Part shown: in pieces, positions 19,306 to 52,380 of the stretch
How the letters are laid out: every line of letters starts with the position of its first letter
Position numbering within the stretch: position 1 is the stretch's first letter
IMG/VR virus record: IMGVR_UViG_3300028797_000096
Span: 77,860 to 141,859 of that record
Source: a virus
Taxonomy: Duplodnaviria; Heunggongvirae; Uroviricota; Caudoviricetes
Reading direction: 5' to 3' (one strand)
DNA: 64,000 nucleotides
Notes under the pieces: model-generated
Database searches by the model: none
What the model was told of the DNA's origin: nothing
Seen by the model: only the letters and a program-made list of their open reading frames with translations
Position numbers and translations under genes: made by a program

Positions 19306-19665
19306 ATGGGAATATATATAGAAGCTGAGAATTATTTGCAGATGAATATACCTAGACTGCTTGGTGAATTGACTAAAGCAGATAAAGAATGTTATGGGTG
19401 TAATATATGTGTATTTGCACCTTTTGGAAAAGAATATAAAGGTTTTAGTACAGTAAGTATATGTATATTGAATATTAGGTTAGCGTATAAACCGGAGATA
19501 TTAGCATATATTAGAGAAAAATTTGGATTTGAGGATGCATGGATATATAAAGATGATGATCATATATTAGATAAGTCAGGTATCTTTGGTAATCTTAATC
19601 TAGCATATAAAATACCAATAAGTTTAGTTGAGCAGCTTGCGGTATTATATAAGATAACTATTTAA
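19306..19665 (+). CDS. paralog family D small protein
   Basis: 119 aa; tandem paralog of 19695..20057 (YI.AENY.Q.N...L.ELTK.DKE.Y ... LAY..PI.L.E.LA.LYK..I). Confidence 0.55.
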   Translation: MGIYIEAENYLQMNIPRLLGELTKADKECYGCNICVFAPFGKEYKGFSTVSICILNIRLAYKPEILAYIREKFGFEDAWIYKDDDHILDKSGIFGNLNLAYKIPISLVEQLAVLYKITI

Positions 19666-19694: not shown

Positions 19695-20057
19695 ATGTTA
19701 ATATATATACCTGCAGAGAATTATATACAGTTAAATTTATCTAAGATGCTTTCTGAATTGACAAAAGATGATAAAGAATCCTATGCACTTAGTATAAATG
19801 TATTTAAAATACCTTTTGGGGCAGAAAATGCAGATTTTTCTATGGTATATATAAGGGTAATGAATATTAAATTAGAGCATAAACAAAACTTTTTAGATAT
19901 ACTTAGAGAAAACTTTGGGTTAGATCCTATGTGGTTAACTAAAGATGAAGATTATATATATGAAAACGATGAAACAATAGCAAATTATAATTTAGCATAT
20001 CAAGTTCCGATTGGTTTAATTGAAAAGTTAGCGCTATTATATAAGTTAGCTATTTAA
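19695..20057 (+). CDS. paralog family D small protein
   Basis: 120 aa, tandem duplicate of previous gene. Confidence 0.55.
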   Translation: MLIYIPAENYIQLNLSKMLSELTKDDKESYALSINVFKIPFGAENADFSMVYIRVMNIKLEHKQNFLDILRENFGLDPMWLTKDEDYIYENDETIANYNLAYQVPIGLIEKLALLYKLAI

Positions 20058-20180: not shown

Positions 20181-20516
20181 ATGAGTAATAGTAAAAAGGA
20201 CATGGAAATGAATAATGAAAATGTAATTTTTAATAAAGAAACAGTAGATACTGAAACTTTAAAGAAGTTAGGCATAAAATCTACTACAAGTACTTTGAAC
20301 TTAACGATACATGAAAAGCGCGTATTGGAATTGTTTAAAGATAAAGATACTGAATTGACTGTTGTTGATATAGTGTTGGGTTATTATAATAAATATACCA
20401 AAGACCATAGTAAAGAAAAGTTGATAAACCGAAATTACATGGGTTTAATTGTTTATAGAATGGCTCAAAAGAAGTTATTAAAAGCAGTTAAAAGAGGTGT
20501 ATATAAACTAATTTAA
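20181..20516 (+). CDS. hypothetical protein
   Basis: 111 aa; GCTTTAC promoter motif 40 nt upstream. Confidence 0.5.
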   Translation: MSNSKKDMEMNNENVIFNKETVDTETLKKLGIKSTTSTLNLTIHEKRVLELFKDKDTELTVVDIVLGYYNKYTKDHSKEKLINRNYMGLIVYRMAQKKLLKAVKRGVYKLI

Positions 20517-20530
20517 TAAAAAGATTAAAA

Positions 20531-21127
20531 ATGGAAAATAAAAGTAAAAAAAGATATTTATATATTGCAACAAATCCATGCTTATATGGATTTATTAAAA
20601 TTGGTATAACTAATAGTATAAATGGTAGAAAAGCTACTTTATCAAATACTAGTGTGTTAGAAGATTTTGAATTTGTTGCTTTATTTGAATGCCAAGATGC
20701 TGAAAAAAATGAAAAAGCTTTACATAAAGCTTTTGCTGCATATAGACATTATACCAGAACTGGTCGTGAAACAGAATTTTTTAGTGCAGATAAATTAGAT
20801 GAAGTTTTAAGTTTTGCTAGAACATCTTTACCTGGAAGTAAAGAAATTACACCTAATTCTACTAAAAAACGCCGTAATAATACTACGTTTGCTATGTTGA
20901 ATATTCCAATTGGTGCTAAGATTTATTATATGAATTGTCAATTACCAGCATGTACTGGTATTGTAATGCCAAAGAATAAAGTTCAATTTCCAGGTTTCGA
21001 TAAACCAGAAAGTGTATCAAAAATTGCCGGTAAATTAGCACCTGCAGATAAAACTAATTCTTTAAATGGTTATCAATTATTTTATTACAACAATAAAACT
21101 TTAGAAGAATTAAGACCAAACGAGTAA
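20531..21127 (+). CDS. T5orf172 / GIY-YIG-like domain protein
   Basis: N-terminal YLYIATNPCLYGFIKIGITNSINGRKATLSNTSVLEDFEFVALFEC...LHKAFAAYR matches the T5orf172 (MUG113-like) pattern. Confidence 0.55.
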   Translation: MENKSKKRYLYIATNPCLYGFIKIGITNSINGRKATLSNTSVLEDFEFVALFECQDAEKNEKALHKAFAAYRHYTRTGRETEFFSADKLDEVLSFARTSLPGSKEITPNSTKKRRNNTTFAMLNIPIGAKIYYMNCQLPACTGIVMPKNKVQFPGFDKPESVSKIAGKLAPADKTNSLNGYQLFYYNNKTLEELRPNE

Positions 21128-21211
21128 TATAATCAAGTCAAAAAGCTTAGATAGAAATATTTAGGCTTTTGACTTTACTATTTAATAAATATATATTATA
21201 ATAAAAATATA

Positions 21212-21607
21212 TTGGGGTTAATAAATAAAATGTCTAATTCTGGAAGATTTATTAAAGGACATAAAACTTGGAATAAAGGCCTTTTTGGTTGGCAAGGGGC
21301 TAATGCTACTAGTTTTACTAAAAAAGATATTGAAGCTAGACGTATTATTGGTAAGCCCAGAAAAGGTCGAGATGGTATGGTATGTAGTAGTGAAGAGAAA
21401 GTACCTGTAAGAAGCCGTAATGGTAAAGTATATATGCACCAGCGCAGAGTAAGTTATAGTAAATGGCTTATGGAAAAGGAATTAGGTAGAAAATTAAAAA
21501 GCAATGAAGTAGTTTATCATATAGATGGGGATAAGTTTAATAACGATTTAAATAATCTTGAAGTTATTACTAGAGCTGAATTATTAAAAAGAAATGGTAG
21601 GAGATAA
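21212..21607 (+). CDS. HNH_3 homing endonuclease
   Basis: FIKGHKTWNKG N-terminal motif and VVYHIDGDKFNNDLNNLEVITRAE HNH_3 motif. Confidence 0.6.
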   Translation: MGLINKMSNSGRFIKGHKTWNKGLFGWQGANATSFTKKDIEARRIIGKPRKGRDGMVCSSEEKVPVRSRNGKVYMHQRRVSYSKWLMEKELGRKLKSNEVVYHIDGDKFNNDLNNLEVITRAELLKRNGRR

Positions 21608-24946: not shown

Positions 24947-24977
24947 GCTTTACTTTTTAAAACGATTATTGTATATT
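24947..24977 (+). promoter_or_regulatory. phage promoter GCTTTAC-N18-TATATT
   Basis: ttttttGCTTTACtttttaaaacgattattgTATATT upstream of the sigma-r4-like gene. Confidence 0.45.
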
Positions 24978-25001: not shown

Positions 25002-26195
25002 ATGGATGAGCAATTAAAAAAAGCTGTTACACAATTATTAAAAAAAGATTTTTCTCTTGATTGGATTTGTAATTCTTTAAATTTAAAAAGAGAAGATGTA
25101 TTAAAAGCTTTTTCTAATGATAAAAAAGGCAAACCTAGTGTAATCACGAAAGAACTTAAACAATTAAAAACTTTAAATAGATTACAAATAAAAGAAACTA
25201 AAGCTAAATTTAAACAAGCCATTATTAATAGAGTTATAGAAACATATAAAAATTATCCAGAGTTATCAGTTAAAGAAAAAGCTATTAAAGCGGGTATAGA
25301 ATTTTCACGCTTTACTAATATTTCACATAAATTAGGTTTAAAACAACCTCAATATATACCACCTTTAGAAAAAAGAAAACAAAAACAGGCAATTAGAGAT
25401 ATGTATAGTAAAGGTATTTATACATATCAAGCTGTTGCAGATAAATTTGGAATTACAAGAGAACGAGTTCGTCAAATTGTTTCAGATATTTATACAGAGT
25501 TTAAAGCTCAAGGCAAAACACATAAAATTGTTAAAAAAGTATTGTGTGGTAAAAATTCACCTTCATATAAAAAAAGTTTAGAAAATTATAATGATATGAT
25601 TAATGTGTTTAAAATTGCAAAAATACATTATAATAAAAGTATATTAAATTTAAATGAAATAACCATTGCTTACCATAATTTGTATGGTAAAAAAAAGAAA
25701 ATTAAACCTAGTCATTTGATTTGGGCAAGTTTGTATAAATATATAAATAATAATGAATTAAAAGAAAATGGTGTAGAAATTAAAAGAATAGATAAAAATA
25801 AATATACTTTATTAATAGACAAACCTTTAAATAAAGAGGAAATTCCAATGATAGAAAATTTGTTTACAGTAAGTGAAAGTGAAGCAAAAAAATTAAAATT
25901 GTCTTCTTATACTATAAATATATATAGAAGTATGGAATTTTTGCGTGTGTTTTGGATTGCTTTAAAAGATTATAATAAAGATAAATTAACATTAAATGAA
26001 TTAACTACTGCTTATTATAATTTATATGGAGCTAAAAATTCAGCTAAAGTATTAACCAGAAAACAAATTAGTACAAAATTACATAATATTCGGCATAGAG
26101 AAAATTGTAGTTATATAGAAAATGTCAAAAATGCCAAAGGATTATATAGATTAACCGAAGCAGGTAAAGATTATGCTGCTAAAATGTTTAAGTAA
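25002..26195 (+). CDS. sigma-70 region-4-like HTH protein with internal tandem repeat
   Basis: KQAIRDMYSKGIYTYQAVADKFGITRERVRQIVSD closely resembles sigma70 region 4.2 (VTRERIRQIEAKAL); internal repeat LNEITIAYHNLYGKKKK / LNELTTAYYNLYGAKNS; GCTTTAC promoter upstream. Confidence 0.55.
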   Translation: MDEQLKKAVTQLLKKDFSLDWICNSLNLKREDVLKAFSNDKKGKPSVITKELKQLKTLNRLQIKETKAKFKQAIINRVIETYKNYPELSVKEKAIKAGIEFSRFTNISHKLGLKQPQYIPPLEKRKQKQAIRDMYSKGIYTYQAVADKFGITRERVRQIVSDIYTEFKAQGKTHKIVKKVLCGKNSPSYKKSLENYNDMINVFKIAKIHYNKSILNLNEITIAYHNLYGKKKKIKPSHLIWASLYKYINNNELKENGVEIKRIDKNKYTLLIDKPLNKEEIPMIENLFTVSESEAKKLKLSSYTINIYRSMEFLRVFWIALKDYNKDKLTLNELTTAYYNLYGAKNSAKVLTRKQISTKLHNIRHRENCSYIENVKNAKGLYRLTEAGKDYAAKMFK

Positions 26196-26206: not shown

Positions 26207-26518
26207 ATGTTACCTTCTAGTGAAAAATATTTAATGCAAAGATATGAAAAGAAAGAAGATTTTGAATATTTACGCGGTTTAATTGATACTTGTATAAAAG
26301 CTTATAATGAAATATCTAAAGAATTAATTAATGGTGAAATAACCATAGATGATAAAAAATACAGTGAATTTGATTTACGTATGGGTATGGTTCAAGCTTG
26401 CATGGGAATGATTACAGATAAAGCAGAAGAAATTAAATGCAAACCAAATCCTGAAACATTAGAAGATATTAAAAAAGTTTTAACTAATGAATTAATCAGT
26501 GAATTTATGGAAGATTAA
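26207..26518 (+). CDS. hypothetical protein
   Basis: 103 aa, SD aaaggagtaagatATG. Confidence 0.5.
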   Translation: MLPSSEKYLMQRYEKKEDFEYLRGLIDTCIKAYNEISKELINGEITIDDKKYSEFDLRMGMVQACMGMITDKAEEIKCKPNPETLEDIKKVLTNELISEFMED

Positions 26519-26519
26519 A

Positions 26520-26924
26520 ATGCATGAATTAGAAAATACTAGATTTAAAAAAATATCAACCTCTTCTGGTGATTGGCTTATTTATGAAAATGGAGATGTT
26601 GAAAGTTATAATATTTTTAATTTTTATTATTCTATTCATCTATTTTGGCCGCCTAAAGAACAGCCTATTGTGCTAAGTGGAAAATATGTAGAATTTCCTC
26701 ATTCGGATTATTTAGTTTATGATAATAATAAATTTAGTTATTTTAAACTTATTAAAAATCCTGATACATTTAATTATTTATCACCAATGTATTATGAATT
26801 GGTTTGGGAATGCGATAATAAAGATTTAATTAAATTTTATATAAAATTAATAGATTCAGGTTTAACTATAGATTCAGTAGTATTAGAAGAATTTTTAAAT
26901 ATGGCAAAAAAATTAAAGGCCTAA
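26520..26924 (+). CDS. hypothetical protein
   Basis: ATG 26520 (MHELENT...) preferred over overlapping start 26499. Confidence 0.5.
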   Translation: MHELENTRFKKISTSSGDWLIYENGDVESYNIFNFYYSIHLFWPPKEQPIVLSGKYVEFPHSDYLVYDNNKFSYFKLIKNPDTFNYLSPMYYELVWECDNKDLIKFYIKLIDSGLTIDSVVLEEFLNMAKKLKA

Positions 26925-26940
26925 TTAAAGGCCTTTTTCT
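26915..26940. terminator. bidirectional hairpin between convergent genes
   Basis: AAAGGCC-taattaaa-GGCCTTT with T-run; lies between 26520..26924(+) and 26942..27442(-). Confidence 0.55.
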
Positions 26941-26941
26941 T

Positions 26942-27442
26942 TTATCTTACTATATCCCAGAAAGAATACTCTTTAGTTCCTACTCTTATTACAGTAAAAT
27001 TCATAAATGGAAATTCACCAGATCCAAAGAAAGCATGATAGTCTGCTTTATCATATAAAGTAATTTGATCAACAGCAACTTTATCTAATTGTCCATTCAT
27101 TACCAATTGTTCTTCCATATAAGGATCTTGTGCTCCTCTTTTATCCTTTTGTCTTTCCAGATAAGTTACAAATCTATCCCATAAATCTGTTACACAAGTT
27201 TCAAACATTAAATTTTTAGTATTAAATGTAATATTCTTGTGTGTATTATACATATTACGAAATACAGTATAATTATCTAAGCAAGATAAATTAACTGGAT
27301 ATTTTTCTGAATCTTGTTTACGTTGATGGAAAATTTTTATGAAGTTTTCACAAAATTGTTCTTTACAAACAGATATGACATTATCAATATCATAATCTTC
27401 ACGAAATGCCCAGAAATCGAGGGCAGTAGTCTCTTTTAACAT
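26942..27442 (-). CDS. hypothetical protein (minus strand)
   Basis: 166-aa minus-strand ORF convergent with 26520..26924; bidirectional hairpin between them. Confidence 0.5.
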   Translation of the reverse strand: MLKETTALDFWAFREDYDIDNVISVCKEQFCENFIKIFHQRKQDSEKYPVNLSCLDNYTVFRNMYNTHKNITFNTKNLMFETCVTDLWDRFVTYLERQKDKRGAQDPYMEEQLVMNGQLDKVAVDQITLYDKADYHAFFGSGEFPFMNFTVIRVGTKEYSFWDIVR

Positions 27443-27596: not shown

Positions 27597-28274
27597 ATGA
27601 AATTTGAAAAAGAGATTACTAATACATTAAAAGTTGGTATATTATTTCAACTTTTACATAGGCATCTAATACGTGATATCGAATCTGAATATTATAAGCA
27701 AGCATATGAAGAAATGCTAAATGGTAATGCATATAGAATTAATTGGGGAATTAAAGAAGATGTACATTTTGTATTAGCTTTACGTTTAGGTAAAGGTAAT
27801 GAAGATACTCTTTTTTCAGCAGAAAAAGATGGGGATAAATTAATTATTAATATTTGGTTATCTTATTTAGAAAGTTTAGTCTTATATAGAGAAATAAACA
27901 AAAAAGCTTTTATAGTACGTAGAATTGAAAGTTTATCAAGTATAATTATTTGGTATATGCTTTCTTTACTGAATGAAGACAAACAAAATATAGATTATAA
28001 TTCAATTAATTTTGAAAAAAATACAAAAAAATTCTTTAATTTAAATAAAGTAAAGACAGCTTTTAATGGAGTTATTTCATTATGTTTATTATGTGATGAT
28101 AAAATCATAACAAAAAATACACCTAAACAAGAAGTTGTAGATGTAATAAAGCAAACAATGGAAAATGATGCTATGCTTTCAGGTATAACTAAGTATTTGG
28201 AATCTTTAAATCAATCAGGTTATGATGATTTAGTAGAATATTGTGAAGAATTATTTGAAAAAAATAAGGAGTAA
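27597..28274 (+). CDS. hypothetical protein
   Basis: 225 aa; GGCTTTAC promoter variant upstream. Confidence 0.5.
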   Translation: MKFEKEITNTLKVGILFQLLHRHLIRDIESEYYKQAYEEMLNGNAYRINWGIKEDVHFVLALRLGKGNEDTLFSAEKDGDKLIINIWLSYLESLVLYREINKKAFIVRRIESLSSIIIWYMLSLLNEDKQNIDYNSINFEKNTKKFFNLNKVKTAFNGVISLCLLCDDKIITKNTPKQEVVDVIKQTMENDAMLSGITKYLESLNQSGYDDLVEYCEELFEKNKE

Positions 28275-28493: not shown

Positions 28494-28499
28494 TTTTTT

Positions 28500-28529
28500 G
28501 CTTTACTTTTTAAAAAATTACGTTATTAT
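28500..28529 (+). promoter_or_regulatory. phage promoter GCTTTAC-N17-TATTAT
   Basis: ttttttGCTTTACtttttaaaaaattacgtTATTAT. Confidence 0.4.
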
Positions 28530-28802
28530 ATATAATAAGTAAAGTGTTGAAACGGTAAGTTATTGTTTTCGTCATTTTTCTGATGTGTCTATAAACGGTT
28601 GTACTTTGTATAGTTTGTTTTTAGTCATAAATTTAATGAATGCTTTATATATTAAGCTAGCAAAAATATATAAAGTTAAACAATGATCGCTATAGGGGTA
28701 ACCTCCTTAGGATTAAATATCTGGATAGATATTAAAATCCGCTCCTATTTAGTGGAATTGAATTCATTTATCTAACATCAATTGTAATTATTTTTTATAC
28801 TT

Positions 28803-28833
28803 TAAGCTTCTTCTTTTTGAAGAAGCTTTTTTT
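28803..28833 (+). terminator. rho-independent terminator
   Basis: AAGCTTCTTC-tttttg-AAGAAGCTT then TTTTTTT, immediately followed by a promoter. Confidence 0.8.
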
Positions 28834-35239: not shown

Positions 35240-37441
35240 ATGAAGATCTTGTTAGTTTTAAGAGGTATTCCAGGTTCTGGTAAATCTACTTGGATTAAAG
35301 AAAGAGATTTAGAAGCATACGTTTTAAGTACCGATGCTATTCGTTTATTATACTCTTCTCCAGAACAAACTATAAAAGGTAAATATATTGTTTCTAATAA
35401 ACATGATAAACATGTTTGGGCTTTCTTTAAAGAAAGATTAGAAGATCGTATGAAGAATGGTGATTTTACTATATTAGATGCTACACATACCAAAGAATCT
35501 TATTTAAAAGATTATAAAAAATTGTGTAAAGAATATAATTATCGTATGATTATTGTAGATTTTTCTTCTGTTGATTTAGATACTTGTAAAGAAAGAAATT
35601 TAATGCGGGAAAGTTATAAACAAGTACCAAATGAAGTATTAGATCGTATGTATAATCAAATAAAAGTACCATTACAAAATAAATATGAAATTTATGATTA
35701 TAATGAATTTCCTAATTTAGATAATTTTGTATATAAAATAGATGGTAATAAATGGAAAGAAGTAGTAATATTTGGTGATATACATAATTGTTATGATCCA
35801 ATAAGAAAATACTTTGAAGCATCTCCAGAATCTGATCAAAAATTATACATCTTTATTGGTGATTATTTTGATCGTGGTATTCAAGCTAAAGAAGTATTAC
35901 AGTTTTGTTTAGACCACTGTGAAAAAGAAAACTTTGTATTTTTACAAGGTAATCATGAAATATGGGCTAAGAATTATGTAAGAGATGGTGAAGCTGCTAA
36001 AATGACACCAGATTTCAAAGATTCTTTAGTACAGTTTGGTGAATTAAAAGATCAATTAAGTAAGTTTACTAGAAGATTAAAAGTAGCAGTAAATGTTAGT
36101 TTTTACTGTCAGGGTATTTATCATAGATTTTCTATTACTCATGGTGGATTAAGCTTTCCTTTAGATTATCGTACTTCTGCAATACAATGTATTAAAGGAG
36201 TAGGTGATTATGATGATTTAGATGAAGTAGAAAAAGCTTTTGGTAGTATTAATGAAAAAATGACTATGCAAGTATTAAACTACAAATGCTATAATGTACA
36301 TGGTCATCGTAATGTAACTAATAATCCAATTATAAGTGCAGACGGCTATAGTATTAACTTAGAAGGTAAAGTTGAATTTGGTGGTAATTTAAGAATAGTT
36401 GAATTATCTTATACAGACAAAATGAATATATTACCAATAGAAATACCAAATACAATTTATAACAAAGATATACAAATTCCTTCTAGTAGACATGATAATC
36501 CAATTATTCAACAATTGGATAGTAGTAGTTTAATACATAAAAAAGATTTGGGTGATGGTATAGTTTCTTATAACTTTAGTAGAGAAGCTTTTTATAGCCA
36601 AAAATGGAATAAATTAACTACTACAGCGAGAGGCTTATTTGTTGATACTAAGACAAATCAAGTAGTTGCTAGATCTTATCCTAAATTTTTTGAAGCAGAA
36701 CAGCATCCATCTACACAATGGAGAAATTTAGAAAAGACATTAGTATTTCCAGTAACTGCTTATTTGAAAGAAAATGGCTTTTTAGGTATTGTATCTGTAT
36801 ATAATGATCAATTATTTATTGCATCTAAATCTACAAATCAAGGCGAATATAAAGAAAACTTTGAGCGTATATTAAAAACACATACAAATATTGATAAATT
36901 AAAAGAATATTTAAAAGCTAATAATTGTTCCGCTATATTTGAATGTGTAGATCCACATAATGATCCGCATATTATTGAATATGTCAATGAAAAAGTTGTA
37001 TTATTAGATATAGTACAGAATGATTTTACAGATACATTTAAATCTTATGATGATGTATGGGAATTAGCTAAACAAATAGGATGTAAACCAAAAGAAATGT
37101 GTAAAGTATTTAATACCTTTGCTGAATTAAAATCTTTTATTGAAGCATTTGATAAAGATTTTCATGAAGAAATAGAAGGTTTTGTATTTGTAGATCAGAA
37201 TAATTTTATGATTAAATATAAAACACCTTTCTATAAATTCTGGAAAGACATGCGTAGAATGAAAGAATATATTAATAAAGGTGATAATGATAAATATTTT
37301 GCCGCTAAAAATGTAAAGTCTGAACAAACAAATTTGATGAATGATTTGTTTAGTTTTATGACAGGTATTAAAAATGGTGGTATTGATTTAGATACATTAT
37401 CCATTATTGATATTAAAAACAGTTATTATAATAAGGATTAA
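35240..37441 (+). CDS. Pnkp-like polynucleotide kinase / calcineurin-type phosphoesterase with C-terminal ligase-like domain
   Basis: P-loop LRGIPGSGKST; metallophosphoesterase motifs GDIHN, GDYFDRG, GNHE; C-terminal third has ligase-like elements (ARGLFVD, EGFVFV, KYKTPFYK) reminiscent of bacterial Pnkp RNA-repair enzymes. Confidence 0.65.
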   Translation: MKILLVLRGIPGSGKSTWIKERDLEAYVLSTDAIRLLYSSPEQTIKGKYIVSNKHDKHVWAFFKERLEDRMKNGDFTILDATHTKESYLKDYKKLCKEYNYRMIIVDFSSVDLDTCKERNLMRESYKQVPNEVLDRMYNQIKVPLQNKYEIYDYNEFPNLDNFVYKIDGNKWKEVVIFGDIHNCYDPIRKYFEASPESDQKLYIFIGDYFDRGIQAKEVLQFCLDHCEKENFVFLQGNHEIWAKNYVRDGEAAKMTPDFKDSLVQFGELKDQLSKFTRRLKVAVNVSFYCQGIYHRFSITHGGLSFPLDYRTSAIQCIKGVGDYDDLDEVEKAFGSINEKMTMQVLNYKCYNVHGHRNVTNNPIISADGYSINLEGKVEFGGNLRIVELSYTDKMNILPIEIPNTIYNKDIQIPSSRHDNPIIQQLDSSSLIHKKDLGDGIVSYNFSREAFYSQKWNKLTTTARGLFVDTKTNQVVARSYPKFFEAEQHPSTQWRNLEKTLVFPVTAYLKENGFLGIVSVYNDQLFIASKSTNQGEYKENFERILKTHTNIDKLKEYLKANNCSAIFECVDPHNDPHIIEYVNEKVVLLDIVQNDFTDTFKSYDDVWELAKQIGCKPKEMCKVFNTFAELKSFIEAFDKDFHEEIEGFVFVDQNNFMIKYKTPFYKFWKDMRRMKEYINKGDNDKYFAAKNVKSEQTNLMNDLFSFMTGIKNGGIDLDTLSIIDIKNSYYNKD

Positions 37442-46135: not shown

Positions 46136-46172
46136 GGGCGAGCGCCGGAGTCGGAGAGCCGGGGCAGACTGT
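46136..46172 (+). tRNA. tRNA-Tyr(GUA) exon 1 (intron-interrupted)
   Basis: GGGCGAG acceptor, CCGG D-stem, GCAGA anticodon stem, loop CUGU|; near-identical to E. coli tRNA-Tyr core (GCAGACTGTAAATCTGC) once spliced to exon 2. Confidence 0.65.
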
Positions 46173-46352
46173 AAAAAATTGCAGCCTTATATAGTAATAT
46201 ATAAGTGAAAATTTGGCTAAGTCGGGGAAAGCTAAGTTAAATGATATGCTAATCCCGAGCTAGGAGAAATCCGAGTGTAGAGACTTTACACCAGACATCT
46301 TATTGAGATGAAGAGAAAGTCCAGACTACAATGTGAAAACAATGTAGCAATG
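46173..46352 (+). ncRNA. group I intron (about 180 nt, ORF-less) in tRNA-Tyr anticodon loop
   Basis: inserted after U35; internal guide GCAG pairs with exon end CUGU with a U-G wobble at the splice site; shares GTGTAGAGACT and AAGTCCAGACTACAA blocks with the tRNA-Leu intron; ends in G before exon 2. Confidence 0.6.
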
Positions 46353-47594: not shown

Positions 47595-47669
47595 TGGCGT
47601 GTAGCTCAACGGCAGAGCTTTCGGCTGTTAACCGAATGGTTGTCCGTTCGAATCGGACCACGCCAGCCA
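47595..47669 (+). tRNA. tRNA-Asn(GUU)
   Basis: TGGCGTG/CACGCCA acceptor, anticodon loop CTGTTAA, GTCCG-TTCGAAT-CGGAC T-arm, encoded CCA. Confidence 0.85.
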
Positions 47670-47676
47670 TGTTTCT

Positions 47677-47751
47677 GGCCCCATCGTCTAATGGTTAGGA
47701 CACCGCCCTTTCAAGGCGAGAATCCCGGTTCAAATCCGAGTGGGGCTGCCA
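47677..47751 (+). tRNA. tRNA-Glu(UUC)
   Basis: GGCCCCA acceptor, anticodon loop CTTTCAA, GGTTCAAATCC T-loop, CCA. Confidence 0.75.
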
Positions 47752-47757
47752 ATTTAT

Positions 47758-47831
47758 TGGAGCATAGTTTAATGGTAGAACCCGGGATTTTGGTTCCCGT
47801 TATCTTGGTCCGAATCCAGGTGCTCCAACCA
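47758..47831 (+). tRNA. tRNA-Gln(UUG)
   Basis: TGGAGCA/TGCTCCA acceptor, anticodon stem CGGGA/TCCCG, loop TTTTGGT, CCA. Confidence 0.8.
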
Positions 47832-48024
47832 TTAAGTTTTACAGAAGTGTCTACTATTAGTTACGTATGAGGCTATAAAGGTAGGAATACGTATCAAAGA
47901 CAGCCTACTAATAAGCACGAAATAATTTTGGTAAGACTTATTAGAGGAAAGTTTTTCTTTTAGCATTGGCTAGAAGTATTACCTGAAAGTTAATATGAAA
48001 AAGTTATTAGCTTTCTTGGTCTAT

Positions 48025-48101
48025 GCTTGTTTAGCTCAGTTGGCTAGAGCATCTGCTTTACACGCAGAGGGTCAGGAGTTCGAGTCTCTTAACAAGCACC
48101 A
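48025..48101 (+). tRNA. tRNA-Val(UAC)
   Basis: GCTTGTT/AACAAGC acceptor, anticodon loop TTTACAC, GGAGTTCGAGTCTC T-arm, CCA. Confidence 0.85.
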
Positions 48102-48124
48102 AAAAATTTAAAAAAAGGAAATTA

Positions 48125-48616
48125 ATGAAAGCAATTTGTCCAAAATGTGGAATAGAATTTGAAAATGATACAAATCGAAAATTTTGTTCAAGAAAATGTG
48201 TAAATAGTCGTAATATTTCACAAGAAACAAAAAAGAAAATTTCAAATAAAATGAAAGCCAGATATCAAGAACCTGAATACAGAAAACAAATTTTGAATTT
48301 AAATAGAAAATTAGGTAATCATTTACATGAAGAAAAATTAAAAAGATTTGTAAAAGCAAAAAATGGGCAAATTTTAGATATTACATATGGGGAATTAGAA
48401 GAATACCAAAAAACTCATTTGGTATGTGAAATTTGTGGTAAAACTGAAATTGCTTCACATAACATAATAAAAAAGATATATCGAAATTATGTCGTGATCA
48501 TGATCATAAAACTTCTAAATTTCGTGGATTATTATGTAGTAATTGTAACAGAAAGTTAGGTTGGTTTGAAAATTTTAAAGATGAAATTTTCAAATATTTG
48601 AATAAAAAGCACCAGT
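48125..48616 (+). pseudogene. NUMOD3 + Endonuclease-VII/HNH-type homing endonuclease with frameshift
   Basis: N-terminal NUMOD3-like SQETKKKISNKMK; frame 2 reads ...LVCEICGKTEIASHNIIKK then must shift to frame 1 (DISKLCRDHDHKTSKFRGLLCSNCNRKLGWF) at the A6 run 48468-48473 to restore the CxxC...DHDH...RGLLC..CN motif. Confidence 0.6.
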
Positions 48617-48682
48617 AGTTTAATAGTAGAATGTAACCTTGCCAAGGTTAAGACCTCGGAGCATAACCGGGTTGGTGCACCA
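48609..48682 (+). tRNA. tRNA-Gly(GCC)-like, atypical arms
   Basis: GCACCAG/TTGGTGC acceptor, perfect anticodon stem TAACC/GGTTA with loop TTGCCAA, CCA; D-arm weak and T-loop AGCATAA non-canonical; overlaps the stop of the HNH pseudogene. Confidence 0.45.
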
Positions 48683-48684
48683 AT

Positions 48685-48774
48685 GGACAGATGGTAGAGT
48701 GGCTGAATACACTGGTCTTGAAAACCGGCATACCAGCAATGGTATCGGGGGTTCGAATCCCTCTCTGTCCGCCA
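48685..48774 (+). tRNA. tRNA-Ser(UGA)
   Basis: GGACAGA/TCTGTCC acceptor, loop CTTGAAA, long variable arm, GGGGTTCGAATCCC T-arm, CCA. Confidence 0.85.
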
Positions 48775-48782
48775 TTTTTTAA

Positions 48783-48872
48783 AGGAGTGGTGGTAGAGCG
48801 GTTTAATACAGCTGATTACTAATCAGCCGAAGCAGTAATGTTTCCGGGGGTTCAAATCCCTCCCACTCCGCC
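48783..48872 (+). tRNA. class II tRNA (Ser-like) with anticodon loop TTACTAA (anticodon ACU?)
   Basis: GGAGTGG/CCACTCC acceptor, GAGCGGTTTAA D-loop as in tRNA-Ser, perfect anticodon stem GCTGA/TCAGC, long variable arm, GGGGTTCAAATCCC, CCA; A at position 34 is unusual. Confidence 0.6.
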
Positions 48873-48888
48873 ATTACTTTATTAATTT

Positions 48889-48923
48889 TGGCCCTGTGGC
48901 GGAATTGGTAGACGCTGCAGACT
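48889..48923 (+). tRNA. tRNA-Leu(UAA) exon 1 (intron-interrupted)
   Basis: GGCCCTG acceptor, GGCGGAATTGGTAGACGC D-arm, GCAGA anticodon stem, loop CUU| ; intron inserted after U34 as in cyanobacterial/plastid tRNA-Leu(UAA). Confidence 0.65.
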
Positions 48924-49628
48924 TAGACGAAAATGAGTGTATCATAATTTATTGAAAAAGTAGTTCTATATCATAAGGAGTTAATCCTATGAAAAATAGA
49001 ATTACAGATCAAGAAATGATTGATATTATCATTAAGTCTCAAACAATGGCTTTAGCTGCTAAAAGATGTGGTATGGCATATACAACATTTATTAGGCATG
49101 CTAAAAGATTGGGTATTTATAAACCTAATCAAGGCGGAAAAGGTACTGAGAAAAAAAGATCTGCTAAAATATCTATAGAAGAAATTTTAGCAGGAAAGTA
49201 TCCTCAGTATCAAACATATAAATTAAAAACAAGATTAATAGATGAAGGATATAAAGAAGATAAGTGTGAGAAATGTGGGTGGTGTGAAAAATTAAAAAAT
49301 AGCAAATATACTCCATGCGAATTACATCATATCGATGGAAATCCTGAAAATCATTTATTATCTAATTTAATTATATTGTGTCCAAATTGCCATTCCTTAA
49401 CTAAATCTTATAGGTTTAGAAGAGGTAAGACTAATGAGCAACAAGGTAGGAAACTTCTCGATTGAATGCTGTCAAATTCGGTGAAAGGTTTTATAATCCT
49501 AACGCCGAGCGAAGCCTAGAAATAGGAACGTGTAGAGACTTAACGGCAGCCACCTAAGTAGAAATATATGGTGAAGACAAAGTCCAGACTACAAACAAGA
49601 AATTGGTAGTGAAAGCTATAGTAGTAAG
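48924..49628 (+). ncRNA. group I intron (Azoarcus / cyanobacterial tRNA-Leu type) carrying an HNH ORF
   Basis: 705 nt; guide GAGT pairs with exon end ACUU (U-G at splice site); core blocks TGTCAAATTCGGTGAAA and GTGTAGAGACTTAACGGCAGCCACCTAAG match the Azoarcus pre-tRNA-Ile intron recalled from memory; terminal G at 49628. Confidence 0.65.
48989..49465 (+). CDS. intron-encoded HNH homing endonuclease
   Basis: CEKCGWCEKL...CELHHIDGNPENHLLSNLIILCPNCH (HNH with two Cys pairs); lies wholly inside the tRNA-Leu group I intron; SD aaggag. Confidence 0.7.
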   Translation: MKNRITDQEMIDIIIKSQTMALAAKRCGMAYTTFIRHAKRLGIYKPNQGGKGTEKKRSAKISIEEILAGKYPQYQTYKLKTRLIDEGYKEDKCEKCGWCEKLKNSKYTPCELHHIDGNPENHLLSNLIILCPNCHSLTKSYRFRRGKTNEQQGRKLLD

Positions 49629-49682
49629 AAAATCTGTTGACAGTTAAATGTCGTACCGGTTCGATTCCGGTCAGGGCCACCA
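49629..49682 (+). tRNA. tRNA-Leu(UAA) exon 2
   Basis: AAAA-TCTGT, variable arm TGACAGTTAAATGTCGT, ACCGG-TTCGATT-CCGGT, CAGGGCC-A-CCA pairing exactly with exon 1 acceptor. Confidence 0.65.
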
Positions 49683-49694
49683 AAAAATTTATAT

Positions 49695-49770
49695 GGGGTT
49701 GTAGCTCAGTTGGTAGAGCATCTGCTTTGCAAGCAGAGAGTCGTCAGTTCGAGTCTGATCAGCTCCACCA
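49695..49770 (+). tRNA. tRNA-Ala(UGC)
   Basis: G3-U70 wobble identity pair, anticodon loop TTTGCAA, CCA. Confidence 0.8.
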
Positions 49771-49771
49771 T

Positions 49772-49848
49772 AGGAAGGTAGTTCAGATGGTTAGAATGTC
49801 GCTCTGATACAGCGAAGGTCGTGAGTTCGAATCTCACTCTTCCTACCA
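49772..49848 (+). tRNA. tRNA-Ile(GAU)
   Basis: AGGAAGG acceptor, anticodon loop CTGATAC, GTGAGTTCGAATCTCAC, CCA. Confidence 0.8.
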
Positions 49849-49856
49849 TAGTTTAT

Positions 49857-49932
49857 GCCTGCTTAGTTCAGTTGGTAGAACGACTGATTTGTAATCAGTA
49901 AGTCGGCGGTTCAAGTCCGTCAGCAGGCACCA
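49857..49932 (+). tRNA. tRNA-Thr(UGU)
   Basis: GCCTGCT/AGCAGGC acceptor, anticodon loop TTTGTAA, CCA. Confidence 0.8.
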
Positions 49933-50321
49933 GAGATTAGTAGGTAATCGTAGTATAGAGATAAAAGCCTTGAATCGTATATCCAATATATTTGAATGGA
50001 CGCCGTAGTCAGTAAAGGGACCTACTAAGTAAGAGATTTTGATAATAAAAAATAGGTTGAGCACATAGTGTTAACTCCAGGTTAGTCATGACTGCTGAGC
50101 ACAGACCGATCATGAAGTAACATACTTGAAACGATAGAGTAGGGTTACAGTTATCAAAATAGTGTTGGGGTAGAGTCTATATAATATATTAAGCATGTTT
50201 ATGCAATCCTTGGATGTTTATATTTGATTGACTCTACAACAATTTTAACCGGATATTAGTGAATGATAATTATTTATTATGCCTAATATCTATAAGTCTA
50301 AGAAAAACATAAGGAAAAAAT

Positions 50322-50747
50322 ATGTTTATTAATACAAATGGAGGTTTGATTGATACTCCAGAACGCTTAATCAATCATTTTGCATCTCTTCCTGAATATA
50401 CTGATATTCAGAAGTCTTTAATTGAAGATCATTGTGCTTGCTGTGCTAAAAGCTTTGCTAGAGGTGTTGGTAAAGTTACAAAAGAAGAGGTATGGTTTGG
50501 TGCTTTAGATGTGTTTCCATATATATCTAATAAGCATGAATTTACCAATGAAGATTTTTTAATTAAAAGATGGGGTATTGATTGGCAAAAAGCTAGGTTA
50601 AAAGAAAGACCAGATGTAGATATTGATAAATCTACTAAAAGTCAATTAGGAAAGATTTTTTACGATGCCTTATTGAGAGATAAAAACGCTATTTATAAAT
50701 GGCGTAGAGTAGAAGGCAAATATTTTGAATATTGTCGTATAAAATAG
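50322..50747 (+). CDS. hypothetical protein
   Basis: 141-aa ORF within tRNA island; CACCAK motif. Confidence 0.5.
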   Translation: MFINTNGGLIDTPERLINHFASLPEYTDIQKSLIEDHCACCAKSFARGVGKVTKEEVWFGALDVFPYISNKHEFTNEDFLIKRWGIDWQKARLKERPDVDIDKSTKSQLGKIFYDALLRDKNAIYKWRRVEGKYFEYCRIK

Positions 50748-50835
50748 TTCAAATATAAAAGGGTGGGACAATTGCTATGATGTTTTAGTAACATTATCAA
50801 TCCCACCCAATGAGTTTAAAATAAGAGGTAAAATC

Positions 50836-51108
50836 ATGTCATTTAACCGTAAACAAACACCAATTGCAACAAACGATCATTGGAATTTATATTTATTAGG
50901 ATTTTGTAAAGAAAATGTTCGTAAAGCTGTGTTAATTAATTATCTTACTAATGATGAATTATCTGCAAAAGTTAATGTAGGTGCAGATATTACTGGTAAA
51001 AATACACAATATACTGTAATTGAAGCGGTTGATGAAAAAACAAATCATTTAGTTGATTTTACTAAAACATTTGTTGTTCCGGGTAAATATGTTAAAACTC
51101 GTGGATAA
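50836..51108 (+). CDS. hypothetical protein
   Basis: 90-aa ORF, SD aagaggtaaaatcATG. Confidence 0.5.
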   Translation: MSFNRKQTPIATNDHWNLYLLGFCKENVRKAVLINYLTNDELSAKVNVGADITGKNTQYTVIEAVDEKTNHLVDFTKTFVVPGKYVKTRG

Positions 51109-51377
51109 TAAATATTAAAAGTTTTGGTCTTATAGGTCAAAGACTAAAATGACGGGGACAGCCTGAAGATAGGAGGCTGCTGCTTGGATCGGCAATATAG
51201 GGTCTCACAAAATACATAAGATTGACCTCACAGTGTTTTCACGCTGATAATCTTATGGTGAGTGTATGCAAAACCTGATTGAGTTGGTTCAAATCCAGAC
51301 AGTTAGGTAGGCAAGGTGTTGGAGCATGAACACACTTAGATGGGTTGCTCCTTATAGTTTTATAGGAAGGATATGAT

Positions 51378-51611
51378 ATGAAAGATATATGTACTGAAAT
51401 TATAAAAGAGTTAGAAAAAATGGGATATACTGCATTTCAAATAACTCCAGAGATGTCTATTCATGAAGATTTAGGTTTAGATTCATTAGATACTATTGAA
51501 TTGGTTGCTAAATTAGAAGAAAAATTTGATATTCGTATAAAAGATGATGATTTAGTAGATGTAAAAACGATTCAAGATATTGTAGATATTGCTAATAAAT
51601 ATTTAAAATGA
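51378..51611 (+). CDS. acyl carrier protein
   Basis: 77 aa acidic; phosphopantetheine attachment motif DLGLDSLDTIELVAKLEEKFDIRI. Confidence 0.8.
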   Translation: MKDICTEIIKELEKMGYTAFQITPEMSIHEDLGLDSLDTIELVAKLEEKFDIRIKDDDLVDVKTIQDIVDIANKYLK

Positions 51612-51734
51612 GAGTTTAACCGATAAAAGAAATAGTTCTATATAATATGAAAAAAATAAATGTATGTTTTTGGCCATGCTTTCCTAGTACCTTTGGAGGT
51701 AAGTGTTAATCATACTTTTATAGAAGATTAGATA

Positions 51735-51764
51735 CCTCCAGAAATAAAAAGCTGGAGGTTTTTT
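51735..51764 (+). terminator. rho-independent terminator after the ACP gene
   Basis: CCTCCAG-aaataaaaag-CTGGAGG then TTTTTT. Confidence 0.8.
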
Positions 51765-51853
51765 AATTGAGTTTGGTAGTTGTAGTATAATCAATACACT
51801 TCCCAATGGGGTAGAAGAGATGTAAGTAAAATCTTATCGATTACCACAGTTTA

Positions 51854-51931
51854 TCGGAATGTAGGATAATCTGGTTATTCCGCCTGTTTTGGGTACAGGA
51901 GACTCCCGGTTCAAATCCGGGCATTCCGACC
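51854..51931 (+). tRNA. tRNA-Pro(UGG)
   Basis: CGGAATG/CATTCCG acceptor, anticodon loop TTTGGGT, CCCGGTTCAAATCCGGG, CCA. Confidence 0.8.
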
Positions 51932-51937
51932 AGTTTT

Positions 51938-52014
51938 TGGCTGGGTAGCTCAGTTGGTAGAGCAAGGGACTGAAAATCCCTGTGTCAGTGGTTCGATCCC
52001 GCTCTCAGCCACCA
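51938..52014 (+). tRNA. tRNA-Phe(GAA)
   Basis: GCTCAGTTGGTAGAGC D-arm, anticodon loop CTGAAAA, CCA. Confidence 0.85.
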
Positions 52015-52019
52015 ATCTT

Positions 52020-52093
52020 GGCCAGGTGGCAGAATGATTATGCAGAGGACTGCAAATCCTTGTACATCGGTTTGATTCCGGTCCTGGCCTCCA
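52020..52093 (+). tRNA. tRNA-Cys(GCA)
   Basis: GGCCAGG/CCTGGCC acceptor, anticodon loop CTGCAAA, discriminator U, CCA. Confidence 0.75.
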
Positions 52094-52098
52094 AATCT

Positions 52099-52172
52099 AG
52101 GTCATTAGTTTAGTGATAAAACAAAGATCTCCAAAATCTTAGTCGGTGGTTTGATTCCATCATGACCTGCCA
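52099..52172 (+). tRNA. tRNA-Trp(CCA)
   Basis: AGGTCAT/ATGACCT acceptor, anticodon loop CTCCAAA, CCA. Confidence 0.75.
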
Positions 52173-52303
52173 TTATTTTGGAAATTTAGTTAAAAAAAGT
52201 ATTTACAAATAAAAATAAATGTATATAATATATAATATCTACTTGCTGCCATACTAGATTTCCCAGTTACCATCGTAGTAAGTACAGCAAGTAGGTAGTT
52301 TAT

Positions 52304-52380
<77 letters not shown>

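Follow-up and report, generated by a model that had tools for sequence, protein, structure and literature searches.

A phage protein with three helix-turn-helix modules, one of them sigma70 region 4-like, and two winged helices: a candidate early DNA-binding regulator

Based on structure prediction, profile searches and the promoter of its gene, the phage protein P0001 is proposed, with moderate confidence, to be an early-expressed, sequence-specific double-stranded-DNA-binding regulator built only of DNA-binding modules. P0001 is very basic (pI 9.86; 81 Lys and Arg residues versus 40 Asp and Glu residues) and consists solely of DNA-binding modules, which makes a phage DNA-binding regulator its most likely identity. 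A role as a sigma factor is precluded by the absence of regions 2 and 3 and by the failure of whole-protein sigma models.

Gene and transcription unit

The DNA derives from an uncultured phage with a 231-kb genome, of which a 64-kb stretch (the window) was examined. The gene for P0001 (25002..26195, plus strand, ATG start; 397 amino acids) is the first of a three-gene, terminator-closed unit. The two small orphan open reading frames (ORFs) downstream, 26207-26518 and 26499-26924 (span 26207..26924, plus strand), are co-transcribed with it and have no family matches, and a bidirectional stem-loop terminator (26915..26936) separates the unit from a convergent minus-strand gene at 26942-27442. 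No replication genes lie near the P0001 gene, no nuclease gene adjoins it within the window, and no iteron-like direct or tandem repeats other than the promoter copies were detected around the gene or in the 14.5-30.5 kb interval. The window also holds several free-standing HNH, T5orf172 and NUMOD1 genes. K-mer and repeat searches of the window revealed no second promoter class, operator or iterons, and no binding site for P0001 was identified in it. PHROG scans of 40 window ORFs, with 64 of the 231 kb in view, gave no MotA, AsiA, gp55 or sigma factor, and a Pfam scan of ten ORFs, mostly among those 40, added none.

Modular architecture of P0001

The AlphaFold2 model built from a 15-sequence alignment (mf97c8b8aed30; mean pLDDT 87.6) shows three successive helix-turn-helix (HTH) modules, the third of them region 4-like, followed by two winged helices; a model from the single sequence was unusable (pLDDT 50.5), which the alignment cured. 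In this model, the N-terminal 120 residues consist of two small HTHs and a long helix. Module 1 is a three-helix HTH at residues 1-38 (25002..25115, plus strand), after which the long helix spans residues 46-84, and module 2, supported by both model and alignment, is a three-helix HTH at residues ~70-112 (25209..25337, plus strand) with the motif YPELS..KA.KAGI. Module 1 is present in the relatives P0003, P0004 and P0009 and absent from P0002, P0005 and P0006; module 2 is kept in all seven aligned family members, with P86 and K114 invariant. All modules are basic, with pI values of 9.3-10.3. A whole-chain Foldseek comparison with the PDB retrieved tandem winged-helix proteins (MukE, cullin and ESCRT-II) as weak matches, only at E values of at least 4e-3. 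The resemblance was taken to be one of fold only, and no kleisin-partner role was read into it. In the viral structure library BFVD, the weak matches were enriched for homing endonucleases and transposases, and included LAGLIDADG, HNH and other endonucleases and a transposase; no nuclease domain of the HNH, GIY-YIG, LAGLIDADG or similar type was detected in P0001 itself.

Module 3 (residues 122-169; 25365..25508, plus strand) is a sigma70 region 4-like HTH, as indicated by Pfam, a PDB sequence search and the model. The initial annotation had placed a region 4.2-type HTH at residues ~120-160 and had let this assignment depend on a sigma region 4 profile match. Both are borne out by Pfam Sigma70_r4 (PF04545), the only family over its cutoff in P0001, which matches residues 126-161 (25377-25484) with E = 2.1e-6 and 27.6 bits against a curated cutoff of 24.1. 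When residues 115-175 were compared with all PDB sequences, 39 of the 40 hits were sigma-factor region 4.2, among them chains 1ku3 and 1ku7 of Taq sigmaA region 4; the shortness of the segment keeps the single E values weak (0.0025 to 1). The string highlighted in the annotation, AIRDMYSKGIYTYQAVADKFGITRERVRQIVSDIY, corresponds to residues 130-164, and the recognition helix TRERVRQI to residues 152-159. The pattern YT..V...FG(I/V)TRER(I/V)RQI is nearly identical to that of the primary sigma factors of Thermus aquaticus (1KU3/1KU7) and Bacillus subtilis (SigA, 7CKQ).

In contrast to sigma70, P0001 has no regions 1.2, 2 and 3 and therefore lacks their core binding and -10 recognition, and its region 4-like module is embedded among other DNA-binding domains. 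Sigma70_r2 and Sigma70_r3 gave no Pfam match even at E <= 10, and the NCBIfam whole-protein models fail by a wide margin (TIGR02937, sigma70-ECF, 18.0 bits versus a cutoff of 42.9; RpoS models, 14-17 bits versus 379-394). Within module 3, the model contains only three helices, preceded by a proline-rich linker, so that the first helix of region 4.1 is missing, and the recognition helix lacks conservation in its C-terminal half, where VSDIYTEFK stands in place of the sigma sequence AKALRKLRH. Module 3 may be derived from sigma70 region 4.2 or convergent with it.

The TRERVRQI HTH is a promiscuous phage module found in many non-sigma proteins. It occurs in the HTH arrays P0007, P0008, P0014, P0015, P0020 and P0021, of which P0008 also bears NUMOD1, and three times in the HNH endonuclease fusion P0011. 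An IMG/VR scan with the block comprising the second HTH and the region 4-like HTH yielded 36 loci, all encoding other proteins with this HTH in many architectures and none (0/36) with a winged-helix domain. Compared with P0011 and P0008, whose module IR..Y..G.YTY..LG.KFG.TRERIRQI is ~33-35% identical over the matched stretch, P0001 has a single copy, lacks nuclease and NUMOD domains, and carries a pair of winged helices absent from those proteins. Because the module is reused in so many non-sigma contexts, a Sigma70_r4 match in a phage protein is shown to be weak evidence for sigma function. The suggestion that P0001 is a sigma mimic gains no positive support, and the companion suggestion of an anti-sigma factor found none either: Pfam, PHROGs and NCBIfam scans of P0001 gave no homology to an anti-sigma family of the AsiA or Rsd type, and MotA (MotA_activ, MotCF) and AsiA domains were undetected in it.

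The C-terminal part of P0001 consists of two copies of a winged-helix domain, here termed "AYYN", located by alignment and model at residues 187-272 (winged helix 1; 25560..25817, plus strand) and 302-396 (winged helix 2; 25905..26189, plus strand). The duplication described in the initial annotation is real, but its units are entire winged-helix domains of ~85-95 amino acids in the model rather than repeats of ~55. Residues 188-235 and 302-349 share 22 of 48 positions, the repeats score 102 by Smith-Waterman, whereas shuffles average 33.7 (sd 6.2; z = 11; 0 of 5000 shuffles reach 102), and the duplication is visible in the DNA (25604-25696 versus 25946-26038, 75% identity over 93 nt). Each repeat shows helices H1-H2-H3 and then a beta-hairpin wing after the recognition helix, as in winged helices. 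The motif LF..SE.EAKKL (residues 286-300) precedes winged helix 2 and also heads stand-alone homologues. Fold matches of the repeats are generic winged helices, mostly MarR/PadR regulators. Unlike MarR, PadR and DtxR proteins, the repeats of P0001 are in tandem in one chain rather than in a homodimer and are fused to three HTHs; neither they nor the stand-alone homologues match a Pfam family or a PHROG, and a PDB profile search gave E >= 0.38.

Stand-alone "AYYN" proteins of ~110 amino acids occur in phages and mobile elements. One of them, P0013, adjoins a DUF5906 primase/helicase-like gene in a mobile element, and a paralogue of 111 amino acids is encoded in the window itself (20181..20516, plus strand; hmmsearch with the domain profile, E = 1.6e-9), behind a GCTTTAC promoter (20135) of its own, with a T5orf172 gene and an HNH gene immediately downstream of it.

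The GCTTTAC promoters

As noted in the initial annotation, the P0001 gene lies behind a GCTTTAC promoter (24947..24977, plus strand), in which GCTTTAC (24947-24953) is 18 nt upstream of TATATT; a 17-nt spacer separates the -35 hexamer TTTACT (24949-24954) from the -10 element TATATT (24972-24977), which ends 24 nt ahead of the ATG. The window contains 27 copies of GCTTTAC where 7.6 would be expected, and 0 of 100 shuffles reach 27. Of these copies, 18 are on the plus strand, 11 of them between genes and with a suitably spaced -10 element, versus none of the nine minus-strand copies. The intragenic copy at 25309, which has no -10 element at the right distance, was rejected as a promoter. The family comprises ~17-21 plus-strand intergenic promoters with the consensus t-G-C/T-TTTAC-t-n-TT, 17-18 nt, TATAAT, and in 17 intergenic promoters the distance from TTTAC down to the -10 element is 17-19 nt, most often 18, which puts TTTAC in the -35 position. 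The most over-represented 12-mer of the window is TGCTTTACTTTT (7 copies versus 0.01 expected). These promoters are carried by plus-strand small-ORF genes, not by the capsid gene or other minus-strand genes. A scan with the generic sigma70 consensus gave 20 matches where 25.6 were expected, no enrichment in DNA so rich in A/T, and the weight is placed on the specific GCTTTAC family only. An excess of AAGGAG Shine-Dalgarno strings agrees with a host that uses canonical sigmaA promoters.

GCTTTAC had been regarded as an unusual -35 element, a view that does not hold: with the hexamer TTTACt, a 17-bp spacer and TATAAT, the family closely resembles the early promoters of T4, in which GTTTAC at -36 to -31 is read by host sigma70 polymerase without phage factors (PMC1524935, PMC2988021). 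The two share the G before the TTTAC core, the 17-bp spacing to TATAAT, the A/T-rich upstream sequence and a position ahead of numerous small novel ORFs and tRNAs, whereas the phage family differs from the T4 promoters (-35 GTTTAC, UP-like A/T tract) in an extra C/T (G-C/T-TTTAC) and a conserved downstream TT. The T4-type early sequence features are all present in the family: a -35 of the form G(N)TTTAC, TATAAT after 17 bp of spacer, and A/T richness further upstream. By analogy with T4, the GCTTTAC promoters probably depend on the sigma factor of the host.

The phage motif TGCTTTAC also contains the T4 MotA-box string TGCTTtA. MotA boxes are centred at -30, 12+/-1 bp from the -10 element, and replace the -35 element (PMC2988021); the motif of this phage is at -35, 18 nt from the -10 element, and its identity as a MotA box was rejected on this spacing. 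Like MotA, P0001 is probably an early phage protein with beta "wings" in its DNA-binding domains, but its repeats are canonical winged helices rather than the double-wing fold, it has no MotA_activ or MotCF, and no AsiA partner was found among the ORFs scanned.

Relatives and conservation

Only about six full-length relatives of P0001 exist among 1.8 billion cluster representatives, and the family was recovered solely by a full HMMER scan of these. A word-indexed search of 5.8 billion proteins returned just the query, P0006 and P0013, even with alignments, its prefilter being saturated by lysine-rich words; among 50,697 phage records, neither megablast nor tblastn matched the region or the protein, and an IMG/VR scan with the whole of P0001 gave no relatives. 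The relatives are syntenic in four sister contigs. They co-occur with the GCTTTAC motif in sister phages, as the initial annotation had expected of a protein kept in phages that share the motif, and lie directly behind it once (L003). Between phages that share 86% identity in their capsid proteins, P0001 retains just 38%; the relatives diverge fast and vary in module number and domain content, a pattern seen as compatible with accessory or arms-race genes no less than with regulators. In P0002, the closest relative, the TRERVRQI recognition helix has been lost, and the module is therefore dispensable in at least one lineage. In L004, a neighbouring HNH_3 gene is the orthologue of window gene 21212-21607, which is 3.4 kb away in the window, so that the adjacency is not conserved. 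The capsid protein of the phage is at most 34% identical to that of any INPHARED phage, the best being Xanthomonas phage phiXF1, and the phage is only distantly related to T4.

Possible role of P0001 and alternative explanations

A possible course of events can be proposed from these data. Host RNA polymerase with its primary sigma factor would transcribe the P0001 gene right after infection from the T4-early-type promoter (TTTACT, 17 nt, TATATT). P0001 could then bind a long or composite DNA site via several of its five modules and, as a regulator that works on its own, control transcription in the phage programme by turning a subset of promoters either off or on. A -35-like sequence is plausible as part of this site because the region 4.2-like recognition helix keeps TRERxRQ. 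The two winged helices arose by duplication. P0001 would not be a subunit of RNA polymerase and would not be needed for reading GCTTTAC promoters.

An improbable alternative is that P0001 is a region 4 surrogate, with its HTH docking on the beta-flap in place of, or beside, host sigma region 4, while the HTH and winged helices direct the polymerase to GCTTTAC or another phage promoter class. P0001 would then exemplify a modified sigma appropriation or supply the "region 4 half" of a split sigma, both equally improbable; it might dock on the flap by itself or pair with a region 2-only, gp55-like factor encoded elsewhere on the 231-kb genome, the winged helices giving a new upstream-element specificity; that pairing is no more probable. 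In favour of the surrogate reading are the Sigma70_r4 match above the cutoff, a recognition helix that equals that of primary sigmas in TRERxRQ, the joint occurrence of P0001 relatives and the motif in sister phages, a 12-mer that is longer than a sigma hexamer and includes the MotA-box string TGCTTtA, and the lack of MotA, AsiA and gp55 homologues among the 40 window ORFs scanned. However, the P0001 gene itself is transcribed from a GCTTTAC promoter, and this promoter class must therefore work before P0001 exists; the motif occupies the -35 position and not that of a MotA box; and the nearly identical GTTTAC of T4 is read by unmodified host polymerase (PMC1524935). The missing first helix of region 4.1, the replaced C-terminal half of the recognition helix, the loss of TRERVRQI in P0002 and the frequency of the module in proteins that are clearly not polymerase subunits also argue against docking, and the proposal that P0001 is a specificity factor for GCTTTAC is left with no positive support. 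The same helix could instead be directed at the host, P0001 occupying host -35 elements (TTGACA) or coating the nucleoid, so that host transcription is shut off while the TTTAC promoters of the phage escape. The TRERxRQ residues shared with primary sigmas are the positions that contact the -35 bases in the sigmaA region 4/-35 DNA structure 1KU7, the phage promoters depart from TTGACA at the third position, and the early-type promoter, the very basic protein and a fast divergence suited to host-interaction genes agree with such a role. It is nevertheless a rather unlikely one: it is purely inferential, five specific-looking modules exceed the needs of a simple occluder, and T4 promoters of the same TTTAC type operate with no protein of this kind (PMC1524935).

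The surroundings of the module 3 and winged-helix homologues point in other directions. P0001 might originate from a homing endonuclease whose DNA-recognition part was domesticated or orphaned, or might be the targeting partner of a separately encoded nuclease, since its nearest region 4-like relatives outside the family are P0011, with HNH and three HTHs, and the P0008 array with its NUMOD1 tail, which adjoins an HNH_3/NUMOD4 gene (L008). The BFVD matches to endonucleases and a transposase, the free-standing HNH, T5orf172 and NUMOD1 genes of the window, the stand-alone paralogue just upstream of two such genes, the variable domain content and the fast divergence are in line with this origin. 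It is nonetheless unlikely, given that P0001 has no nuclease domain, that no nuclease gene adjoins it in the window and that the HNH_3 adjacency of L004 is not conserved. Homing genes are typically sporadic in distribution, unlike the syntenic relatives in the four sister contigs. Tandem winged helices are used by the plasmid initiators RepA/RepE, by ORC/Cdc6 and by TubR, and P0001 might accordingly bind a replication origin or partition site, as the Foldseek matches to tandem winged-helix proteins and the position of P0013 beside a primase/helicase-like gene would allow. This role is very unlikely: the fold matches are generic and dominated by MarR/PadR proteins, there are no replication genes nearby, and the iterons or tandem repeats expected of a Rep_3/RepA-type system are absent near the gene and from 14.5-30.5 kb except for the promoter copies.

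If P0001 is indeed an early DNA-binding regulator, it would add an undescribed architecture, three HTHs plus two winged helices, to the phage early DNA-binding proteins, together with an undescribed winged-helix subfamily. Engagement of RNA polymerase by the region 4-like module would be of far greater importance. A region 4 surrogate would represent MotA/AsiA-independent sigma appropriation or a split sigma in a lineage distant from T4. In T4-like phages without MotA, the early-to-middle switch and the early shut-off are still open questions (PMC1524935, PMC2988021).

Gene Organization and Domain Architecture

The ORF at 25002..26195 (plus strand) encodes a 397-aa protein, P0001, and lies behind a genuine GCTTTAC promoter, in which the heptamer at 24947 (+) gives TTTACT, a 17-nt spacer, and TATATT, which ends 24 nt 5′ of the ATG. 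The gene heads a three-gene unit with the orphan ORFs 26207-26518 and 26499-26924, at the end of which lies a bidirectional terminator (26915-26936); its neighbors are all orphans. The sigma region-4.2-like helix-turn-helix (HTH) described in the initial annotation was confirmed by Pfam Sigma70_r4, which matches residues 126-161 above its curated cutoff of 24.1 bits (27.6 bits, E = 2.1e-6). Among the matches of residues 115-175 to all PDB sequences, 39 of 40 were sigma factors, all aligned over region 4.2, such as B. subtilis SigA (fgvTRERiRQI) and the Taq sigmaA region 4 chains 1KU3/1KU7; the shortness of the segment keeps the individual E-values weak (0.0025 to 1). The internal duplication is also real: residues 188-235 are 46% identical to residues 302-349, with an alignment score of 102 against 33.7 ± 6.2 for shuffles (z = 11; 0 of 5000 as high), and the repeat is visible in the DNA (25604-25696 and 25946-26038, 75% identity over 93 nt).

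Besides this match, scans of P0001 with Pfam, PHROGs, and NCBIfam found no family; sigma regions 2 and 3, MotA, AsiA, and nuclease domains were not detected, and whole-protein sigma models scored far under threshold. The pLDDT of the AlphaFold2 model was 50.5 from the single sequence and 87.6 with a 15-sequence alignment, and it is on the model from this shallow alignment that the structural inferences are based. Five modules are predicted: a three-helix HTH (HTH 1, residues 1-38) followed by a long helix (46-84), a second three-helix HTH (about 70-112), the sigma region-4-like unit (122-169), and two winged helices (187-272 and 302-396) sharing a layout of helix, short strand, helix, helix, and β-hairpin. 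Foldseek searches with the model gave only weak matches to tandem winged-helix proteins. All modules are basic (pI 9.3-10.3; full protein 9.86, with 81 K+R and 40 D+E). Since five basic HTH or winged-helix modules and no other family were found, P0001 consists solely of predicted DNA-binding modules strung together.

The GCTTTAC Promoter Family

The window contains 27 copies of GCTTTAC where 7.6 would be expected. An alignment of seventeen intergenic plus-strand sites gives an A/T-rich tract, t, G, C/T, TTTAC, t, n, TT, followed after 17-19 nt (mostly 18) by TATAAT, and TGCTTTACTTTT is the most over-represented 12-mer of the window (7 versus 0.01 expected). Set against TTGACA, the hexamer TTTACt with its 17-bp spacer has the canonical geometry of primary-sigma promoters. 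The early -35 element of T4 is GTTTAC at -36 to -31, and T4 early promoters are excellent for host polymerase, with no phage factor required (PMC1524935; PMC2988021). The string TGCTTTA is also that of the T4 MotA box; however, MotA boxes are centred at -30, 12±1 bp from the -10 element (PMC2988021), and this identity was rejected because the distance in the window is 18-19 bp. The motif is therefore a -35 element rather than a MotA box. Strong AAGGAG ribosome-binding strings are enriched (e.g., AAGGAGTAA, 13 copies versus 0.93 expected), which suggests a host whose sigmaA promoters are of the conventional type.

In the window, no GCTTTAC-type promoter was found at minus-strand genes, including the capsid gene, in keeping with a putative distinct class of promoters that, as in T4, acts later. 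The capsid gene (16716-18257 (-), region to 18583) runs opposite to almost all other genes; its orthologue in contig L004 (86% identical) belongs to the Pfam Gp23 family, and TATAAAATA, ~45 nt 5′ of the capsid ATG, may be a late-promoter analogue of T4 TATAAATA. Two unusually long non-coding stretches, 28494-28816 (323 bp) and 15046-16715 (about 1.7 kb, with only two very short ORF calls), carry or adjoin several early-type promoters (15218, 15990, 16295, 28502, and 28835), some of which have no obvious gene directly behind them; small RNAs or ORFs of very short length may be encoded in these stretches.

Relatives and Module Reuse

No counterpart of P0001 was found among 50,697 deposited phage genomes, and the capsid protein of this phage is at most 34% identical to those of deposited phages (best, Xanthomonas phage phiXF1). 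Metagenomic contigs carrying P0001 reach 231,566 bp. When 1.8 billion cluster representatives were scanned in full with HMMER, only 21 proteins were recovered with E <= 1e-3, and these form three groups. About six are true family members (P0002-P0006 and P0009), in which HTH 1 is present or absent and the winged helices number 0, 1, or 2; the closest relative, P0002, no longer carries the TRERVRQI recognition helix. About six others (P0012, P0013, P0016-P0019) are stand-alone proteins of 103-130 aa built from a short N-terminal motif and a single winged helix. The signature of this "AYYN" winged helix, ELTL.EIT.AYYN.F...K..I..KL......IE.V.G.RG.YRL, defines a subfamily with no sequence match in Pfam, PHROG, or PDB. 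One stand-alone paralogue is encoded at 20181-20516 (+; E = 1.6e-9), another directly follows P0002 in sister contig L002, and P0013 is encoded in a mobile element, with CBASS, Fic, and a DUF5906 gene as neighbors.

The third group has only the region-4-like HTH in common with P0001 and includes arrays of 3-6 copies (P0007, P0008, P0010, P0014, P0015, P0020, P0021) and an HNH endonuclease with three (P0011); P0008 has a C-terminal NUMOD1 module and adjoins an HNH_3/NUMOD4 gene. An IMG/VR scan for the block YS.G.YTY / TRER[IV]RQI gave 36 loci, in which the TRERVRQI-type helix occurs in true sigma factors, HNH fusions, HTH arrays, and several further architectures, and the AYYN winged helix in none of the 36. 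Phages thus reuse this HTH widely as a module, and by itself it is no indicator of sigma function. In the libraries searched, neither the full-length architecture nor the AYYN subfamily has been described; an early multi-HTH DNA-binding protein is of a familiar phage kind. At five of the loci (L011, L022, L023, L029, L041), the matching ORF encodes a ~139-aa viral protein with a sigma region-4.2-like HTH (GITRERVRQIV) and a C-terminal IPNMGKKTIEEICKRLEENG that, by eye only, resembles the RNA polymerase alpha-CTD helix-hairpin-helix.

The gene is syntenic in sister contigs, where it follows an acetyltransferase gene (L002) or precedes orthologues of minus-strand gene 26942-27442 (L003) or of 27597-28274 (L005). 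Compared with L004, capsid identity is 86% and that of the P0001-family protein only 38%; the gene has been passed down within the clade, and its evolution is fast and modular. Elsewhere, 19306-19665 and 19695-20057 (+) form a tandem pair of paralogues, 74% identical in DNA across 125 nt, whose proteins match one L004 ORF (52% and 87% identity), with conserved inter-gene junction repeats at 19270, 19654, and 20046.

Possible Function of P0001

With about an even chance, P0001 is an early, free-standing DNA-binding regulator of the phage transcription programme. It would be made early by host polymerase, could use several of its five modules to engage a DNA site that is long or composite, and would regulate phage transcription. 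With TRERxRQ retained, such a site might plausibly include a -35-like sequence; searches of the 64 kb covered, out of 231 kb, identified no binding site. The analysis shows the architecture, charge, promoter type, operon organization, and family distribution, whereas DNA binding, timing, regulatory role, and target are inferred.

The initial annotation had instead proposed a specificity factor for GCTTTAC, or an anti-sigma or sigma mimic. Neither of the two outcomes named there as refuting it occurred: the region 4 profile matched, and homologues exist in phages with the same motif, once directly behind GCTTTAC (L003). Common descent by itself, however, would produce such co-occurrence, and no anti-sigma feature was found in P0001. 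A polymerase-docking surrogate of region 4 would agree with the Sigma70_r4 match and with the long, conserved motif, yet it is improbable, as is sigma appropriation independent of MotA/AsiA or by a split sigma: the gene itself depends on a GCTTTAC promoter, T4 uses such a motif with no special factor, region 2 is absent, the modelled unit lacks the first helix of region 4.1, the recognition helix departs after RQI (VSDIYTEFK versus EAKALRKLR of sigma), one orthologue (P0002) has lost it, and the module is frequent in non-polymerase proteins.

Descent from a homing-endonuclease recognition module is unlikely, though less so than such docking; HTH relatives with HNH/NUMOD, weak BFVD matches rich in endonucleases, and nuclease genes adjoining the AYYN paralogue argue for it, and the syntenic gene position and the lack of a nuclease domain argue against it. 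Slightly less likely is a host-directed -35 occluder or nucleoid binder, a purely inferential reading with which the sigma-like helix, early promoter, and basic charge are consistent. Binding to an origin or partition site, suggested by fold matches to ORC and TubR, is the least probable, as window repeat searches found no iterons. The AYYN paralogue at 20181-20516 (+) itself lies behind a GCTTTAC promoter and is directly followed by a T5orf172/MUG113 (GIY-YIG-like) gene (20531-21127) and then a free-standing HNH gene (21212-21607); 20181-21607 (+) may be a DNA-binder and nuclease unit.

tRNA Cluster and RNA Repair

The tRNA cluster at 47595-52380 (+) contains 14 tRNAs by ARAGORN or 15 by Rfam, among which lies an HNH endonuclease gene (48989-49465). 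Group I intron matches at 46162-46345 (56.8 bits) and 49397-49609 (65.1 bits) (+) exceed the Rfam gathering score, both surfacing only in the sensitive E-value mode. Behind each comes a segment resembling the 3′ half of a tRNA, with CCACCA as its last bases; some tRNA genes of the cluster are thus apparently split by introns. The structured-looking 51109-51377 had no Rfam match. A 733-aa polynucleotide kinase, phosphatase, and RNA ligase fusion (35240-37441 (+); phrog_8238, E = 6e-175), a Pnkp-like RNA-repair enzyme, has two early-type promoters in tandem ahead of it (35067 and 35188).
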